In this document: positions 17,698 to 62,467 of the stretch, in pieces
Layout of the letters: the number at the start of each line of letters is the position of its first letter
Position numbering within the stretch: the stretch's first letter is position 1
Position numbers and translations under genes: made by a program
Origin: Alphaproteobacteria bacterium
Lineage (GTDB): Bacteria; Pseudomonadota; Alphaproteobacteria; JAAXGF01
NCBI GenBank assembly: GCA_963555825.3
Contig: CAUVXB020000002.1
Coordinates: 2,432,001-2,496,000, forward strand
Reading direction: 5' to 3'
DNA length: 64,000 nucleotides
Notes under the pieces: generated by a model
What the model was told of the DNA's origin: nothing
Databases searched by the model: none
The model's input: only the letters and a program-made list of their open reading frames with translations

Positions 17698-18267
17698 ATG
17701 AACAAGCTTTTGACCATGATTTCCGCCGTGGCGCTACTCACGGCCATCGCGGGTTCGGCATACGCCGACCAACATGAAAAGACCGTTTTCATCACGAGTT
17801 CGACCTTCAAGGGCAACCTAGGCGGGCTCGCGGGAGCCGACGACAAGTGCCAGGCGGAGGCGGACGGCCCGGCATCAATCGTTCCTTCCGGCACTTACTT
17901 GGCTTGGCTATCCGATGGAACCGACAGCCCCGATACCCGCTTCACCAAGTCTGCCCATCCTTACATGCTGCCCGATGGAACGAAGATCGCCGAAAATTAT
18001 ACCGATCTAACGGACGTATCCATCCTACACGCAATCACCATCGACTCCACCGGCAAAGCCCTCGGGCAACAACCGTTCTGGACGGGCACAAAGGCCGATG
18101 GCACAACCGCGCCACTATCCGTGACATGCACCGGGTGGAAGGACCCTTTACCTTATCATCATGGAATGCACGGGCAGACAAATAGGACGAACTCATCCTG
18201 GTCCACAATGCACTCTAACGATTCGTGCCGCAACAGATCCGCCCCTTTACTGTGCTTCCAGCAATAA
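17698..18267 (+). CDS. Secreted DUF1554/endostatin-like (C-type lectin fold) protein
   Basis: Signal peptide; VFITS..F.GNLGGLAGADDKCQ, YLAWLS, WTGT, terminal LLCFQQ. Confidence 0.7.
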   Translation: MNKLLTMISAVALLTAIAGSAYADQHEKTVFITSSTFKGNLGGLAGADDKCQAEADGPASIVPSGTYLAWLSDGTDSPDTRFTKSAHPYMLPDGTKIAENYTDLTDVSILHAITIDSTGKALGQQPFWTGTKADGTTAPLSVTCTGWKDPLPYHHGMHGQTNRTNSSWSTMHSNDSCRNRSAPLLCFQQ

Positions 18268-18688
18268 GGGACGGTCGCTTCCGGGATTTTTCCATACGCA
18301 GTGAGCCCGGCACCTCGTTGACCGCCTTGACCGCTTTCCTCAGCCGTCAGCGCGTCGACGCGAGCGCCAGGATGTCGTCCATGAATCTGTTGTAGAACAG
18401 GCCGGACCTCGCCATCCGCTGACACCGCGCTAACTTCTCCTATTGGCTATGTGTGGACGGCCCCGATTTGGCAAGGGTTGTTTTGACGGTCATGCAAGTT
18501 GGTCGGGTGCGGCTATGTGTTCGGCCCGTTTGCGCGATACGACGATCGCTGGCCCTAATGCGATCCGCGGATCGGGTCCCAGTTATAAGCACGAGCTCAG
18601 TGGCTCCGTAGCCAAGACGGGTTTCTCCGATCCCCGGTGTTCGACCGGTCTTGCATTACCTCACGATCACCCTGCCAAAAGGGTTTAA

Positions 18689-19863
18689 TACCAGTGAGCC
18701 TATGAAATCGCCTTCATGATCCATGGATAGGCGCAGAGGGTTCGCATACGATCCGGTTCTGCGATGAGGTCGATCCATGCTTGGCAACAGGCGTCGATGA
18801 TGGCCTCGGTGTCGTCGAGGACGCGGAGCGATAGGAAGCGTTCGCGTAGGTAGAGCCAAACCCGCTCGACGGGGTTGAGTTCGGGACTGTAAGGCGGCAA
18901 CAGCGCCAAGGTGACGTTGTCGGGGACGGTGAGGGCGCGCTCGTCGTGCCAACCGGCGCCGTCGCACATCATGACGGCGTGCGCATCCTGGTCCAGGGTA
19001 TCGGCGAAGTGTGCGAGAAACAGGTCCATGACCTTGGCGTTGACGCTCGGCATCACCAGGGTGACGTCGTCGCCGGTGTCCGGGCGCACGGCGGAGAAGA
19101 TGTAGGCCCACTGGTAGCCGATTTGACGCGTCCCGGGGGCACGCTCGCCCCTGCGCCACCACCGGTGACACACCCGGCCCTTGTTGCCGACGCGCGCTTC
19201 ATCCTGAAACCACAGCTGTAGGCGCTTGTCGGGATGCGCCGCGGCGGTCGCCTTCAGGATGTCGCGAAGCCCCCTTTTTTGAAGCGCTCCTGCGCTTCGG
19301 CGTCCCTTCGCGGGTGGCTCGGGCGCGCCTTCTGGCGGGAAAATCCCATCCGCCGTAGAACCCGGGTCATGCTCGAGGGGTGGTAGGTCTTGGCGAAGCG
19401 CTCCTCCAGCCAGCGGCACAGATCGGCCCGGGTCCAGGCGCAAACCCCGTCGCGCTCAGGCTCCGGCCCGGCGATGATGACCGCCGCCAGCGCCGCTTCC
19501 TCGTCTGCCGTCAGCCGCCGCGGCGAGTAGCCCTTTGGACGGTCGTGAAGCCCCTCCAATCCCTTTGCATTGTAACGAACAACCGCGTCGCGAAGCGTTT
19601 GGCGATCCATCCCCGCAAGCCGCGCGGCATCAGCCCGGGGCATCTCCTCCAAAGCATTCGCGATCCCATAGGCCCGCGCCGCCGCTCGACCGTACGATTC
19701 CACGCGAGCCCAGCGCCGAAGCTCCAAAGGCGTCAAATCATCCCGTATCTTGAGTGCTGATCCCATGACATCCCCCACATCTGGTGGGAGACCATAGAAT
19801 CACAATCCGCCATCATCCGCCATCAATGAATATCCCGAGAGTCAATTCAGGCGCTCACTGGTA
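18689..19863 (-). mobile_element. IS630-family element, copy 1
   Basis: TIRs taccagtgagc/gctcactggta; flanked by TAA direct repeat. Confidence 0.92.
18700..19766 (-). CDS. IS630 transposase (orfA HTH + orfB DDE, programmed -1 frameshift)
   Basis: AAAAAAG slippery site at about 19274-19280; WFQDEAR, CDGAGWH, LPPYSPELNPVE. Confidence 0.9.
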
Positions 19864-19876
19864 TAAGACGTCTGCC

Positions 19877-20908
19877 TCAAGCGGCGGTGACCGCTGGCTG
19901 ACGGTAGGTTCCACCATTGGCGAGCAGCGCCCAGGCGGTTCGTGCGTTCTTGTTGGCCAGCGCCACGGCGGCGAGCTTGGTCGGTTTGCGCGCCACGAGA
20001 TCGCCCAGCCAAGGCCGTTTGGCGAAGTTCGTTCTTCGCCCGTGGCGTATCACCGTCATGGCGCCGGCGACGAGCAGCCATCGCAGGTAGTGGTCGCCCG
20101 CCTTTGAGATGCGCCCGAGCCGCTGCTTGCCGCCGGTCGATATCTGTCTGGGCACCAGACCGATCCAAGCCGCCAGTTCACGCCCCGATCTGAACACCGA
20201 AGGGTCGGCGATCGAGGCCGCCAGCGCACTCGCCGTGAGCGGTCCGATGCCGGGAATGGTCGCCAGACGTTGGCTGACCTGGTTCGCCCGATGCCAGGCA
20301 TGAATGCGCTGCTCGGTGATGGTGATCTCGCGCTCCAGCGACAGCAACTGCCGCGCCAGTCCTTCCAGGCATGTTCGTGCCAATGGCGGGATGCGTTCAT
20401 CGCCCTCATCAGCGATGACCGCGAGGAGTTCCTTCACCTGCGGCAGCCCGACCCGGGCGACGACCCCGAACTCCGCCATGTGCGCGCGGATCGCGTTGAC
20501 CAGCATGGTCCGCTGCCGAACCAGGAGTTCGCGCGTCCGGTGGTCCATCAACACGCTCTGCTGCGCGGCCGTCTTGACCGCCACGAAACGCATCGATGGC
20601 CGCGTTACCGCTTCGCAGATCGCTTCGGCATCCGCCGCGTCGTTCTTGTTGCGCTTGACGTAGGGCTTCACGTAAGCCGCCGGCATGATGCGCACCTCAT
20701 GGCCAAGCGCCCCGAGTTCCCGCGCCCAATGGTGCGACGTCGCGCAGGCCTCGATACCGACCAGACAAGCCGGCTGCTTGCTGAAGAACGGCACAACCTG
20801 GCGGCGCCTCAGTTGCCGGCGGATCACGGTCTCGCCTGAGACATCGACCCCGTGAACCTGGAAAACGTTCTTCGCAAGATCAAGTCCGATCGTGTTAACC
20901 TCGGTCAT
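19877..20908 (-). CDS. IS110/IS1111 transposase (DEDD recombinase)
   Basis: IGLDLAK, GIEAC, KNDAADA, IPGIG, STGGKQRLGRISK. Confidence 0.95.
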   Translation of the reverse strand: MTEVNTIGLDLAKNVFQVHGVDVSGETVIRRQLRRRQVVPFFSKQPACLVGIEACATSHHWARELGALGHEVRIMPAAYVKPYVKRNKNDAADAEAICEAVTRPSMRFVAVKTAAQQSVLMDHRTRELLVRQRTMLVNAIRAHMAEFGVVARVGLPQVKELLAVIADEGDERIPPLARTCLEGLARQLLSLEREITITEQRIHAWHRANQVSQRLATIPGIGPLTASALAASIADPSVFRSGRELAAWIGLVPRQISTGGKQRLGRISKAGDHYLRWLLVAGAMTVIRHGRRTNFAKRPWLGDLVARKPTKLAAVALANKNARTAWALLANGGTYRQPAVTAA

Positions 20909-20989
20909 AGGACGGCTCCTTTGTAAGTGATCAGCCAACAGCTACCACTTCTGGCACCTAGATGCCGCGTGGGGCCGTCCACCCCATTA

Positions 20990-21101
20990 CACCTGGACTC
21001 GATGGCTGCACCGGAACGATGACCGCTTTCGGACGATCGGCCGACATACCAGTCCGCTTCGTGCTTTCGAGCCACGTCAAATTTCAAACCGAGGCACTAT
21101 C
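20990..21101 (+). repeat. Hairpin array type R (second part; first part 18433-18449) plus right terminal IR
   Basis: The rebuilt site aligns without gaps to 52156-52247; the tail gtgctttcgagccacgtc matches about 53709-53727. Confidence 0.85.
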
Positions 21102-21143
21102 CGCGCGCTTGGCCTGGCGGCGATTTCGCGCCATATTGGCGTC

Positions 21144-22025
21144 ATGGGCGATTATCTGCTGAAACCCGATCCGGCCGATCCCCGGCTGACCAACCGGGTC
21201 ACCGGGCGCGACCACGAAGGCAACGAGGTCGAGACCTCGGTCGTCGTCGAGCGGCCGCTGACGCTCTATCTCAACGGCCAGGAGATCGTCACCATGATGA
21301 CGATCGGCGACTTTCCCGGCTATCTGGCGGTCGGCTATCTGCTGAACCAGAACATGCTGCACGCCGACGACAAGATCACCGCGATCGACCACGACGACGA
21401 GATCGACACCGTCGTCGTGCGCACCAAGCGCAAGACCGACTACGAGAAGAAGCTCAAGAAGAAGACGCTGACCTCGGGTTGCGCCCAGGGCACCGTGTTC
21501 GGCGACGTCATGGAGCGCTTCGAGGCGATCGAGTTAGACCCGAACGCCATCGTGCGCACCTCGTGGATCTACGCTCTCGCGAAGCGGATCAACACCACCG
21601 AGAGCCTCTACCTCGCGGCCGGCGCGATCCACGGCTGCGTCTTGTGCGAGGAGGACCGGCCGCTGATCTACATGGAGGACGTCGGCCGCCACAACGCGAT
21701 CGACAAGATCGCCGGCTACATGTTCCTCGAGGGGATATCGCCCAAGGGCAAGCTGTTCTACACGACCGGCCGGCTGACCTCGGAGATGGTGCTCAAGACG
21801 GTGCAGATGGAGATCCCCATCCTGATGTCGCGTTCGGGCTTCACCGCCTGGGGCGTCGAGCTGGCGCGCGAGGCGAATCTCACGCTGATCGGCCGCGCCA
21901 AGGGCAAGCGCTTCATCGCGCTCGCCGGCGACGACCGCATCGTCTACGACGCCGACACCGCCAAGGCGTGGGACGAGCCCGCCGCCATCCAGCGCAAGGC
22001 GAGCCGCGCCGACGATGCCGCGTGA
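21144..22025 (+). CDS. fdhD: Formate dehydrogenase accessory sulfurtransferase
   Basis: [33 protein letters not shown]. Confidence 0.93.
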
Positions 22026-22677
22026 GGCGAACGCCGGCGTCGCCGGCGTGCTCTTGGCTGGCGGGCTGTCGCGGCGCATGGGCGGCGGCGACAAGGCGCT
22101 GCTAGCGCTCGGTGGCGAGACCATCCTGGCGCGCGTCATCGCAAGGACCAAACCGCAGGTCGCCACGTTGGCGCTCAACGCCAACGGCGACCCGGCGCGC
22201 TTCGCGGGTTTCGGCCTGCCGGTGGTCGCCGACGTGGTGGAAGGTTTCGCCGGCCCGCTCGCCGGCGTGCTGACCGGCCTCGAATGGGCCGCCGAACACG
22301 CGCCCGATTGCGCCTGGCTGGCGAGCTTCGCGACCGACGCGCCGTTCCTGCCTGCCGACCTGGTCACGGGCCTCGTGACCGCCGTGACACGCGATGGCGC
22401 CGACATGGCCTGCGCGATGAGCGCCGGGCGCCACCACCCGGTGTTCGGCCTGTGGCCGGTGCGCCTCGCGGCCGAGCTGCGCCACGCCCTGGTCGACGAA
22501 GAGGTCCGCAAGGTCGACGTCTGGACCGCGCGCTACCGCCTGGCGGTCGCCGAATTTGCTTGCCAGCCGGTCGATCCGTTCTTCAACGCCAACCGCCCCG
22601 ACGACCTGGTCGAGGCCGAGGCGCTGCTCGCGCGCCTTGCCAAGTCGGGGGCCGCGCCAAATACCAAGGATCAGTGA
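22015..22677 (+). CDS. mobA: Molybdenum cofactor guanylyltransferase
   Basis: [28 protein letters not shown]; last codons come from the MITE. Confidence 0.93.
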
Positions 22678-22922
22678 TAAAGGCCCCTAGAGACGGCTTG
22701 CCGTGGTTCTCGGCTAGGCGCACCCGTCGCGGCGATGCAGCGCATCGCAAGGCGGGTGCAACAACGTCCGAGAGCCTCGGGAAGCCGCCCTTCGGGTCGC
22801 GGCCGCTTATCGCCGGAGGGCGTCAGGCAGCCTAGCCGATGCGCTGCATCGCCCGCGGCTCCCTTCCTACCCGGCGAAAAGCGGACGCGATCTTTAGGGG
22901 CCTTTATCACTGATCCTTGGTA
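22662..22922. mobile_element. Palindromic MITE (about 260 bp)
   Basis: TIR taccaaggatcagtgataaaggccccta / taggggcctttatcactgatccttggta; inner IR gcgatgcagcgcatcg / cgatgcgctgcatcgc. Confidence 0.85.
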
Positions 22923-22967
22923 TAAGTCTTTAGCCGCGAGGCTGCAAAAGGGAGGCGCGCATCCGCC

Positions 22968-46460: not shown

Positions 46461-48732
46461 TGGACGCGCTTCCCGCCGCCGCGGTCAAGGCGATCGTCAT
46501 GGAGGGCGGCAGCGCCAGGCGTGATGTCGCCGACGCCGCGGCGCGCTTCAAGCCGGGCGACGCCGTGGTCGCGCGCAACATCCACCCAGCGGGTCACACG
46601 CGGCTGCCGCGCTACGCGCGCGGCAAGCGGGGATTTGGTGCGCCAGGCGAACTGGCAGAAGGTAGGGGGTGCAAGTCCCCCGGAACGAAGGAGTAACCGA
46701 ACCACGTTTCTCCGCGAGCCGTGCGTTGGCTCCCGTGAGGGGGCAGGCGAAGCGTCGGTAGCGGCATGGATGGGCAGGGCTATTGAGCACCGTAAAAGCG
46801 ATGGTCCGGGGTGCCGAGGCTTTCAGATCGGTCGAAGGCAATATCGCAGGCGTCGTTTTGGTGAGATGTCGGCGAGCCCCGCGGTGTCAGAGAACCCATG
46901 CACGTTCGCACGCCTTCTGTTGGGACCCTGGGAGGTCTTCAAACTGCCCCGGTTGTCGTAAAGGGGCCGCGTAGGGAATGGAGAAAACCGAAGCCTATGA
47001 TGAACGGTTTGAAGAAGTCGGATGAGGCCGTACGACCTGTGAGGGCGGCGAACAAGGGAGCGCGAGCTTCTGCGGAGTCGCCGGAGGAAAGGGCCTCAAC
47101 CAAGGGGAAGCCGGATTGCCAAAGCACGCGCCGAACCCAGTGTCGGGTAAGCGTGCCACAGGCGGCGGCCCGGATACGGAAAGCTGCAGAGAGAAACCCG
47201 AAGGAACGTCTCACTGCGCTCTTCCACCACATTACGCCGGACGCGCTCGGTGCGGCCTACTTCGCATTGAAGAAGGACGCAGCAGCCGGTGTCGACGGCG
47301 TTACGTGGGACATGTACGGCGAGGGTCTGGATGAGCGCCTGCTCGACCTGCACCGGCGCCTGCACAGAGGGGGAGCGTACCGGGCGCCGCCGGTTCGGCG
47401 GGTAGAGATACCCAAGCCGGACGGGGGGACACGACCGCTCGGGATCGCGGCGCTGGAGGACAAGGTCGTCCAGAAGGCGGTTGTGGATGTGATCCTGACA
47501 CCGATCTACGAGGTGGTGTTTCTTGGCTTCAGCTACGGGTTCCGACCGGGGCGGGGGGCGCACGATGCGCTCGATGCCCTGGCCTTCGGGATAGAACGGC
47601 GCAAGGTCAGCTGGATAGTCGATGCAGACCTCCGGGCGTACTTCGACACGATCCCGCGGGATTGGTTGATCACGTTCCTAGAGCACCGCATCGGAGACAG
47701 GCGGGTCATCCGTCTGATCCGGAAATGGCTGAACGCCGGCGTCATAGAGAGTGGGTCATGGGCAGATACGGGTATGGGCACGCCGCAGGGGGCAATAGTC
47801 TCCCCCGTCTTGGCGAACGTGTTCCTGCATTACGTGCTCGACTTGTGGTTCCACAAGAAATGGCGCCCGAACGTCCCGGATGGCGAAGCGATCATCGTCC
47901 GTTACGCTGACGATATCGTTGTCGGGTTCCAACACAAGCGGGATGCGGAGCGGTACCTCCGCGACGTTCGGGAGAGGCTGGCCCGGTTCGGTCTCAGCCT
48001 CCACCAGGACAAGACCCGCCTCGTGGAGTTTGGCCGGTTCGCGGATTTGAACCGGCGCCAGCGCGGGGTGGGCAAGCCGGAGACATTCGACTTTCTGGGC
48101 CTCACGCACTATTGCACGACGACCCTGAGAGGACGCTTTCGGCTTGGTCGCAAACCGGTTGCCAAACGGGTCAACAGGACCCTGGCGCGCATCGACGAGG
48201 TGCTTCGCAAGCGCTGGCACCACGACATCTGGGAAGTTGGTAGGTGGCTGGGGCGAGTCTGCAATGGCTGGCTCAACTACTTTGCCGTCCCAGGGTCAGG
48301 CCGGTCCATCCGTGCGTTCCTCCGCAGGCTGCAACGCCGGTGGATGCGGGCGCTACGCCGCCGGTCCCAGCGAGCCCGATTTAGTTGGAAGCGACTGGAG
48401 CGCATGACCGAAATCCTGTGGCCACGCGCCTCCATCCGCCACCCATGGCCGGACCAGCGGTTTGCCGTCAAGCACCCGAGGTAGGAGCCGGATGGTTCAA
48501 CGACCACGTCCGGATCTGCGCGGGGGGTGCGCAGCAATGCGCATTCCTACCGTAACTCGACCGGGTCCACGGCGTCTTCGTCTTCCCCGACACCAACGCC
48601 ATGGGCGGCGGAGAGCAGCCGCACACGCTTTATTCGGTGTGTTTCACGGGCGAGGTGCTGTGGGGCGCCGACGGGCACGCGCGCGACCGCTGCTACATCG
48701 ACCTCTGGGACCGCTACCTCGACCCGGCATGA
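46460..48732 (+). CDS. Nitrile hydratase beta C-terminal SH3 half; exons 46460-46637 and 48557-48732
   Basis: Spliced frame reads [30 protein letters not shown]...YSVCF..LWG..IDLWDRYL. Confidence 0.88.
46638..48556 (+). mobile_element. Group II intron (En-minus, probably bacterial class E)
   Basis: 5' GTGCG, 3' AAC, domain V gagccggatg..cacgtccggatc, domain VI with bulged A; removal restores the host frame. Confidence 0.92.
46997..48484 (+). CDS. ltrA: Group II intron reverse transcriptase/maturase
   Basis: IPKPDG..RPLGI, SYGFRPGR, GTPQG, RYADD, FDFLG, GWLNYF; no HNH domain; start uncertain. Confidence 0.93.
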   Translation: MMNGLKKSDEAVRPVRAANKGARASAESPEERASTKGKPDCQSTRRTQCRVSVPQAAARIRKAAERNPKERLTALFHHITPDALGAAYFALKKDAAAGVDGVTWDMYGEGLDERLLDLHRRLHRGGAYRAPPVRRVEIPKPDGGTRPLGIAALEDKVVQKAVVDVILTPIYEVVFLGFSYGFRPGRGAHDALDALAFGIERRKVSWIVDADLRAYFDTIPRDWLITFLEHRIGDRRVIRLIRKWLNAGVIESGSWADTGMGTPQGAIVSPVLANVFLHYVLDLWFHKKWRPNVPDGEAIIVRYADDIVVGFQHKRDAERYLRDVRERLARFGLSLHQDKTRLVEFGRFADLNRRQRGVGKPETFDFLGLTHYCTTTLRGRFRLGRKPVAKRVNRTLARIDEVLRKRWHHDIWEVGRWLGRVCNGWLNYFAVPGSGRSIRAFLRRLQRRWMRALRRRSQRARFSWKRLERMTEILWPRASIRHPWPDQRFAVKHPR

Positions 48733-52155: not shown

Positions 52156-52247
52156 ACTTCTCCTCTTGGCTAAAAGCCGACCAAATAGCTGCACCAGAAC
52201 GACGGCCGCTTTCAGGCGACAAGCCGACATGCGAGTCCGCTTGGTGC
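52156..52247 (+). repeat. Hairpin array type R (intact)
   Basis: Gapless homologue of the site split by IS1111. Confidence 0.85.
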
Positions 52248-62280: not shown

Positions 62281-62370
62281 ATGTCTCCTCACTGGCTATT
62301 CGCGGACCTAATGGCCGCGCCTATCGAATGACCGCTTTCGGGCGGTAAGCTGACCCACGAAATCGCTTCC
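62281..62370 (+). repeat. Hairpin array type R (diverged)
   Basis: tctcctcactggcta..gac..atggc.gc.cc..cgaatgaccgctttcgggcggtaagctgac resembles 52156 and the rebuilt IS1111 site. Confidence 0.65.
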
Positions 62371-62467
62371 TATTTTCCGAAACGCGCCGCGCCGCCCCGC
62401 TGGATCGCGCGCGGGCGATCGCGTAGAGTCCCGGCCCAAGAACCAACCAGCCCGGAGACGCGCCACC

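Follow-up and report, generated by a model that had tools for sequence, protein, structure and literature searches.

What interrupts a dispersed repeat upstream of the fdhD gene in this alphaproteobacterial genome, and what directed the interruption to that site? The DNA analyzed here (64,000 nucleotides, nt; hereafter the window) corresponds to C2:2432001–2496000, on contig C2 of a two-contig, 6.04-Mb genome (the source genome, G000). Its interval 18433–21070 holds three things: an insertion sequence (IS) of the IS1111 type, an IS630-family element nested inside it, and the two halves of the interrupted repeat, designated R. We have high confidence that an RNA-guided IS1111 element inserted into R at a TA dinucleotide, that its own RNA gene spells the site, and that the IS630-family element landed later. 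The anatomy of the element, its empty site, the fold of its non-coding region and the covariation of guides with flanks are directly observed; the working of the RNA is argued from related elements. IS1111-type siblings are grouped below into families A, B, B' and C.

Precise Insertion of an IS1111-Family Element

When the flanks 18433–18449 and 20990–21064 were joined, they aligned without gaps to an intact copy of R in the same window (52156–52247), with 71/92 identities (73/98 in a 98-column count of the same comparison). Scanning every 92-nt window on either strand of the 64 kb gave a background mean of 24.3 identities with a standard deviation of 4.2; the best unrelated window reached 44, and the R copy at 62282 scored 55. 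TA occurs twice when the site is occupied, once in the flank and once as the final two bases of the element, and only once at the break in the intact repeat. Such a gapless empty-site alignment with a single TA indicates that the target was not duplicated. An earlier sequence-only reading of this DNA had proposed the join of 18449 to 20990, with the sequence as found here, inverted repeats 7 and 3 nt from the ends and a shared TA core, and all three were borne out: the perfect 12-bp subterminal inverted repeat GTGGACGGCCCC lies 3 nt from one end and, reverse-complemented, 7 nt from the other (table 1). Both junctions of the window copy are bridged by DNA contigs from two studies (X1 records 1 and 8, X9 records 26 and 31). 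The form lacking the IS630-family element was found in all four public runs, but with the letters of sibling copies.

The transposase matches Pfam families PF01548 (DEDD, RuvC-like N-terminal domain; 1.1e-12) and PF02371 (C-terminal domain; 1.4e-27), and scores 336.8 bits against the NCBIfam model NF033542, "IS110 family RNA-guided transposase", whose cut-off is 140. It comprises 343 amino acids from an ATG at 20908, which is preceded by an AAAGGAG ribosome-binding site (the longest open reading frame starts with TTG at 20938). Transposases of the IS1111 family are described as having about 330–350 amino acids and a GL-P----S(t)G motif, and the elements as carrying 11–13-bp subterminal repeats, extensions of 7 and 3 bp (left and right, respectively) and a downstream non-coding region (PMC11187229). 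The protein found here is within this size range, and GLVPRQISTG in its translation fits the motif. In intact siblings, approximately 250 nt of non-coding DNA lie between the transposase stop codon and the right end, whereas in the window the IS630-family element separates the gene from this region. The family assignment made in the sequence-only reading is thus upheld by both Pfam domains, the NCBIfam score, the subterminal repeats with their 7- and 3-nt extensions and the long downstream non-coding region: window positions 18450–20989 are an IS1111-family element on the minus strand, one of five copies, 1361–1363 bp long when intact. ISfinder places the IS1111 family within its IS110 group. 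Plasmid relatives at 65–68% identity are annotated only as "IS110 family transposase".

Sibling Copies and the Target Repeat

Using blastn, we found five family A copies in the genome at an identity of at least 96%. Two are intact (C2:1013043–1014403, 1361 bp, and C2:1017033–1018395, 1363 bp), and three carry the IS630-family element (the window copy, C2:525397–530214 and C2:1067012–1069551). All five adjoin GGCTA in the same orientation. On the other side, R is present at the identical position in three of them and the sequence beyond it is unrelated, indicating separate and independent insertions; the remaining two have different sequence there, with only GGCTA and some loosely similar letters in common. 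An examination of the flanks of homologous copies, which had been proposed as a check, therefore gave a divided answer: the GGCTA edge is general (5/5), but R itself is the target in only 3/5. Unrelated targets, or a lack of guide complementarity, are not what was found, given GGCTA at every copy and the guide complementarity described below. The genome also contains sibling families B (79% amino-acid identity, six copies), B' (77%) and C (55%, five copies).

The similarity of the flanks might instead result from segmental duplication of an element together with its flank, or R might be the terminal part of a longer element. Duplicated loci do exist, since the two R copies beside family C elements at C2:2722970 and C2:3616748 are identical and have identical flanks. 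In the five family A copies, however, the left flanks have nothing in common past GGCTA or CATGGCTA, and similarity between the right flanks is only about 80–86% within R and absent beyond it. Moreover, eleven R copies have no IS1111-type end adjoining them, two IS copies lack R, and the rule of 7- and 3-nt extensions places the element ends exactly at the break in R. We consider an origin of this kind barely credible.

R occurs as dispersed copies of about 120–135 nt, ending near ...GTCAAATTTCAAACCGAGACAC. An iterated nhmmer search revealed 16 copies in the 6.04-Mb genome (12 in the first round), three of them in the window (at 20987, 52167 and 62293). Five of the 16 adjoin an IS1111-type end, three of family A and two of family C (the latter a single duplicated locus), and eleven do not. 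Among 41 genomes (G000 and 40 relatives), nine have a match to R at E ≤ 0.01. Convincing matches are present in G007 (seven, the best with 87% identity over 114 nt), G002 (five), G004 (two) and G006 (two), whereas four further genomes have only 19–30-nt matches near the threshold. In those other genera the 5' edge of R is again (T/C)GGCTA. R is older than the source genome.

The target had been described from sequence alone as an abundant array of hairpins, a picture that we could not support. Tandem Repeats Finder and a repeat finder gave no tandem or clustered arrangement in either flank of the site, so an array was rejected and the copies are regarded as dispersed. A strong hairpin was likewise rejected, R being only weakly structured: the single-sequence fold had z = −0.84, the consensus fold of unoccupied copies reached only −4.5 to −6.3 kcal/mol, and no Rfam family matched the intact R copy. 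With 16 copies per 6.04 Mb R is not abundant either, and the specificity is for a motif of approximately 14 nt at its 5' edge and not for R itself, given that only three of the five siblings lie in R.

Guide Segments in the Non-Coding Region

The non-coding region of IS1111 elements is reported to give rise to a seekRNA, in which a match to the top strand lies 5' of a match to the bottom strand and the two overlap in the target (PMC11187229). According to the same description, the seekRNA acts in trans and is required for excision and insertion, and natural reprogramming of such regions occurs. In the window copy, the right-end segment 18450–18689 is 90–96% identical to the four sibling copies. 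Alignment of the non-coding regions of families A, B, B' and C showed a conserved scaffold and four hypervariable segments, each of which matches the flanks or ends of its own family (table 1).

A guide matching the sequence around ttggcTA had been anticipated by the sequence-only reading, and segment 1 (TCTTGGCTA) answers to it with 8/9 matching positions at the window site. Segment 1, for the top strand, lies 5' of segment 3, for the bottom strand, and the two overlap at TA, as in IS1111 seekRNAs. The 8-mer ACACATAG is found both in segment 2 and at the real junction (18447–18454), and in 19/19 aligned elements segment 2 follows the right end in its C/T variation (ACACA vs. ATACA). Segment 4 forms five Watson-Crick pairs in family A; in family B and in the G003 element all positions pair (7/7), one of them as G-U.

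RNAalifold analysis of 19 non-coding regions (alignment A1, from which the partial regions L015, L017, L025 and L026 and the duplicate loci L022, L030, L027 and L033 were left out) predicted 32 base pairs in eight helices, with 91.8% of alignment cells paired. Compensatory changes were observed in 15/32 pairs, a level reached by none of 500 shuffles, and slid controls were only 23–49% paired. In this fold, the first internal loop has segments 1 and 3 as its two sides, and the second has segments 4 and 2. The loop-1 module spans about 68 alignment columns and both loops together about 136.

Table 1. Positions of the elements, repeat copies and guide segments in the window, and guide segments by family.
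Feature	Position	Strand	Remarks
Left (5') edge of interrupted R, ACTTCTCCTATTGGCTA	18433–18449	+	Core TA 18448–18449; 16/17 identical to 52156–52172
IS1111-family element, right end	18450–18689	−	3' non-coding region (putative seekRNA/bridge-type RNA gene); subterminal repeat 18453–18464; 3-nt extension 18450–18452
Guide segment 2 (3' side of loop 2), ACACATAG	18513–18520	−	Same sequence as right IS end, core and first flank base
Guide segment 4 (5' side of loop 2), CGCATTA	18556–18562	−	Reverse complement of core + first bases of left IS end (TAATG); putative donor guide
Guide segment 3 (3' side of loop 1), GCTTATAA	18583–18590	−	Reads left target flank + core; four siblings have GGGTTTAG
Guide segment 1 (5' side of loop 1), TCTTGGCTA	18609–18617	−	Reverse complement of core TA + right target flank; 8/9 to own flank TAGCCAATA
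Nested IS630-family element	18690–19866	−	Pfam; NCBIfam NF033545
IS1111-family transposase gene	19877–20908	−	PF01548 + PF02371; NF033542
IS1111-family element, left end	20909–20989	−	Subterminal repeat 20971–20982; 7-nt extension 20983–20989; core TA 20988–20989
Right part of interrupted R	20990–21110	+	Ends ~35 nt upstream of fdhD start 21144; 55/75 identical to 52173–52247; hidden Markov model (HMM) E = 5.1e-19
Uninterrupted R copy (empty site, CTCTTGGC-TA-AAAGCC)	52156–52247	+	Gapless alignment to joined flanks
Third R copy, more diverged, unoccupied	62282–62373	+	55/92 identities; HMM E = 1.2e-14
Segment 1 by family			A TCTTGGCTA (TCATGGCTA in two copies); B CTATAGCCA; B' TTTGGGTCA; C ACCAATGTC and variants
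Segment 3 by family			A GGGTTTAG (window copy GCTTATAA); B GCTTATGA; C TAAGCAGAT
Segment 4 by family			A CGCATTA; B CGCATTA; C ACCATCA
Segment 2 by family			A ACACA-TA-G; B ACACA-TG-G; C ACACAA-GA-C; copy of right IS end + core + 1–3 flank bases

Covariation of Guides and Flanks across Genomes

We then compared the guide segments with the flanks of their own and of other elements, using three sibling families of the source genome and elements from nine other genomes (16 of the 41 genomes searched have a match to the element). Segment 1 matched the right flank at 6.36/9 positions in own pairs and at 4.01 in cross pairs (28 pairs; none of 20000 permutations was as high). Two mis-anchored rows (B_C1_2235 and L016) were kept in this test, where they count against the hypothesis. 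With one pair for each of 15 guide classes and the core excluded, the corresponding values were 4.87/7 and 2.95 (0/20000). Segment 3 matched the left flank at 3.56/6 in own pairs vs. 2.11 in cross pairs (18 pairs; 0/20000). Examples of own matches between segment 1 and the right flank are 9/9 in G018 and 8/9 in both G003 and G004. The G004 element, which belongs to another genus and is 88% identical to family A, has the same guide TCTTGGCTA and adjoins ACTTCCCCTTTTGGCTA, an R-type edge.

These data also bear on the idea that the protein selects the site by reading DNA shape, such as a hairpin at the 5' edge of R, or that the site is due to chance and the matches in the non-coding region are incidental. 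Some R copies do have an imperfect palindrome around TGGCTA at their 5' edge, for example GTCCGGGTA-TGGCTCC-ACCCGGAC at C1:381960, and other sites in the genome match the guides better than the real ones do (see below). Yet neither the R copy at the window site nor the one at 52156 has the palindrome, the fold of the repeat is not significant, and the variable segments change together with the flanks in 15 guide classes from ten genomes while the scaffold stays constant. Such an explanation is highly improbable.

A Model for the Insertion

In the model that we favor, RNA-guided insertion, the element entered one R copy at the single TA of TCTTGGC-TA-nACCC, at the 5' edge of the repeat, without duplication or loss, and this TA is the core common to the target and the joined IS ends. 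The region of approximately 250 nt downstream of the transposase gene probably encodes an RNA of the seekRNA/bridge type with two internal loops, which would guide the choice of site. Loop 1 carries one segment complementary to the top strand of the core and right flank, and another, identical to the left flank and core, that would pair with the bottom strand; loop 2 carries an equivalent pair for the two IS ends, left and right. By analogy with ISEc11, ISPa11 and ISKpn4, as these are described (PMC11187229), the RNA would be made, bind the transposase and direct strand exchange. An IS630-family element later inserted at a TA that lies 10 nt beyond the stop codon of the transposase, and thereby separated this gene from the RNA gene.

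Observations That Weigh against the Model

Several observations weigh against RNA-guided insertion as set out above, the foremost being the left guide of the window copy. Its segment 3 (GCTTA-TA) matches its own left flank (AGGTG-TA) at only 1/6 positions. The right flank poses a similar problem in family B, whose copies match the predicted sequence at only 3, 4, 4, 5 and 7 of 9 positions, a poor fit (that of their left flank is good). The putative donor guide, segment 4, depends on just 5–7 pairs and is the weakest of the four segments. The permutation tests count related elements as independent and hence overstate significance, so the class-level test is the safer one. When all TA sites of the genome were ranked, the real sites scored 9–10/14 with the best sibling guide pair, whereas 40–76 other sites scored 10 and 3–5 scored at least 11. 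Real sites are thus high but not at the top, which indicates that the guide limits as delimited here are approximate and that site choice is not fully explained by them; prediction of sites across the genome from the 14-nt guide pair was accordingly rejected. The unoccupied R copy at 52172 scores 11/14 with the guide pair of the window copy, as one of five TA sites at 11 or more.

Further points come from database and contig searches. An Rfam search at E ≤ 1 returned no family for the non-coding region or for the nested element, save a chance match to a snoRNA. In contigs of four public runs we found neither an empty site joining 18449 to 20990 nor a circle joint from 20989 to 18450, although contigs drop rare variants and forms. 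Contigs from RNA libraries (X15 and X19) cover the sibling type of the non-coding region, joined across the IS630 site; they cannot show transcription, nor do they bear on the window locus.

One explanation of the left-guide misfit keeps the element RNA-guided but holds that this copy was placed by the seekRNA of a sibling acting in trans, or that, once inserted, it exchanged its left guide by recombining with an element resembling family B. Segment 3 of the window copy (GCTTATAA) differs from that of its siblings (GGGTTTAG) at 5/10 positions and from that of family B (GCTTATGA) by a single base. It fits the site of the sibling C2:1013043–1014403 at 5/6 positions, and the GGGTT-TA of the siblings fits the window site at 3/6. 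In scores out of 14 positions, the main sibling guide pair gives 9 at the window site, where the copy's own pair gives 7; at the 1013043 site, the window-type pair reaches 10 and that copy's own pair 7. A comparable cross-fit between guides and sites was observed in family C, and both action in trans and natural reprogramming are on record for the IS1111 family, as noted above. On the other hand, there are only five copies, 3/6 is near the cross-pair mean of 2.11, and tolerance of mismatches on the left side would account for the data equally well; the order of events is not readable from the sequence. We give this variant an even chance.

A Nested IS630-Family Element

The sequence-only reading of the interval was right about the IS1111 insertion but did not mention the complete, 1177-base IS630-family element nested inside it. 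The latter has terminal repeats TACCAGTGAGC at 18689–18699 and 19853–19863, and its transposase is encoded in two frames, 19254–19778 (helix-turn-helix domains) and 18700–19443 (DDE_3). The genome contains 65 full-length copies at approximately 99.9% identity, and their flanks show a palindromic preference of roughly GGTCT-TNA / TNA-GAC.

In three of the five family A copies, this element occupies the same TA, 10 nt past the stop codon of the IS1111-type transposase (18688–18690 / 19864–19868 in the window; C2:525636/526812; C2:1068139/1069313). The one in C2:1067012–1069551 is oppositely oriented, and therefore at least two of the insertions were independent. This TA, with the transposase gene on one side and the guide RNA gene on the other, is a hot spot of IS630 insertion.

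Genomic Context

The insertion is intergenic, about 155 nt upstream of fdhD (21144–22025), and a DUF1554 gene (17698–18267) lies on the other side. Other R copies match the right part of the interrupted repeat up to query position ~116–125.

Two further features of the window were observed. Domains D1–D4 of a group II intron (Rfam RF02005, 163.7 bits) are located at 46672–46896, the sole match to Rfam at gathering thresholds in the whole window. A sequence resembling a miniature inverted-repeat transposable element lies at 22661–22923; it begins with ATACCAAGGATCAGTGATAAAG and has 58-nt inverted-repeat arms (78% complementary, 147 nt apart), and a sequence similar to it adjoins a family B copy on contig C1.

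Composite Copies and Tandem Arrays

Some loci of the sibling families are composite. At C2:524031–530214 (L004), a single R copy contains a tail-to-tail pair of IS1111-type elements with TGGCTA alone between them, a family B copy inserted at TG and a family A copy at TA, in opposite orientations. The family C copies at C2:2722970 and C2:3616748 have both flanks identical and represent a duplicated locus. At their left end they adjoin an R copy in inverted orientation, which the family C left guide fits at only 1/6, suggesting rearrangement between copies. Two chimeric elements were also detected: C2:1504952–1506302, located in a B'-type target, is B'-like in its 5' part but has a non-coding region of type B, and L032, in genome G001, has a segment 1 of type B' joined to a 3' half of type C. 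These chimeras point to recombination among sibling elements.

Downstream of family B copies we found perfect (mostly 100% identical) tandem arrays of right-end fragments, at L059 297–888 (C1:169300–170400), L060 65–1999 (C2:2097600–2099900), L061 204–474 (C2:1402600–1404200) and L062 230–421 (C1:2233500–2234900). Their periods are 24, 26, 28, 40, 66, 94, 134, 138 and 296 nt. Every unit ends in ...CCGTCCACACA followed by TG and restarts just past an internal TG. In the 66-nt unit the restart point directly follows ACACA-TG as encoded in guide segment 2, and in the 138-nt unit it directly follows the GCTTA-TG of segment 3. This pattern suggests that guide-coding DNA has been used as a pseudo-substrate.

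Relation to Known Systems

For the IS1111 family, this mechanism and the targeting of chromosomal repeats have both been described before, and the present element is a further example. The core of family A is TA, and that of IS621 is CT. The RNA gene found here lies downstream of the transposase gene, whereas that of IS621 lies upstream; the strand order is reversed, and subterminal repeats are present. The bridge RNA of IS621 is described as having two internal loops, a target loop and a donor loop, with guides for both strands (PMC13604230), and the consensus fold obtained here has the same target-loop/donor-loop layout.

ISPa11 of Pseudomonas aeruginosa, an IS1111-family element with a seekRNA, inserts into repetitive extragenic palindromes (REPs) (PMC11187229). 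Judged by that description, it resembles our element in its subterminal repeats, its downstream non-coding region, its single orientation in a short chromosomal repeat and the position of the top-strand match 5' of the bottom-strand match; the target here, however, is the edge of a low-copy repeat of about 120–135 nt (16 per genome) instead of an abundant REP. ISKpn4, of the same family, is reported to insert into attC sites (PMC11187229). For ISEc11, short and long seekRNAs of 82 and 154 nt are given, and cargo is said to be tolerated and the target not duplicated (PMC11187229). The architecture is the same, the loop-1 module and both loops together spanning about 68 and 136 columns here vs. 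82 and 154 nt, respectively. In contrast, ISEc11 is described with a short linear target (GTGAAAATACTG), and the element studied here has a natural "cargo", the IS630-family element between the transposase and RNA genes.

ISPpu9 of Pseudomonas putida KT2440 is an IS110-group element described as residing in repetitive extragenic palindromes, with a small-RNA gene downstream, modular partial copies and a small RNA that is not needed for transposition (PMC12288879). It is similar in its insertion into repeats, the small-RNA gene downstream of the transposase gene and the presence of partial copies elsewhere. As far as that account goes, it differs in that the downstream RNA here carries guides matching the target, and in that the partial copies here are tandem right-end arrays and not dispersed modules.

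Implications

For annotation, the ends of such elements should be taken to include the 7- and 3-nt extensions, and the present interval should be treated as two nested insertion sequences. A broader and rather doubtful proposal is that families A, B, B' and C form a guild whose guide RNAs are interchangeable in trans and are rapidly reshuffled, with guide-coding DNA serving as a pseudo-substrate. If so, copies would often be located at sites specified by the guides of a sibling, the use of pseudo-substrates would explain the perfect tandem right-end arrays, whose units restart exactly behind the two motifs encoded in the guides (right end + core, left target + core), and the window copy, with its swapped left guide and its IS630 wedge, would be one snapshot of the process. 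A single genome containing related elements with differing guides on a conserved scaffold allows guide and target to be read against each other without experiments, and provides a useful natural "reprogramming series" for the engineering of seekRNA/bridge recombinases.

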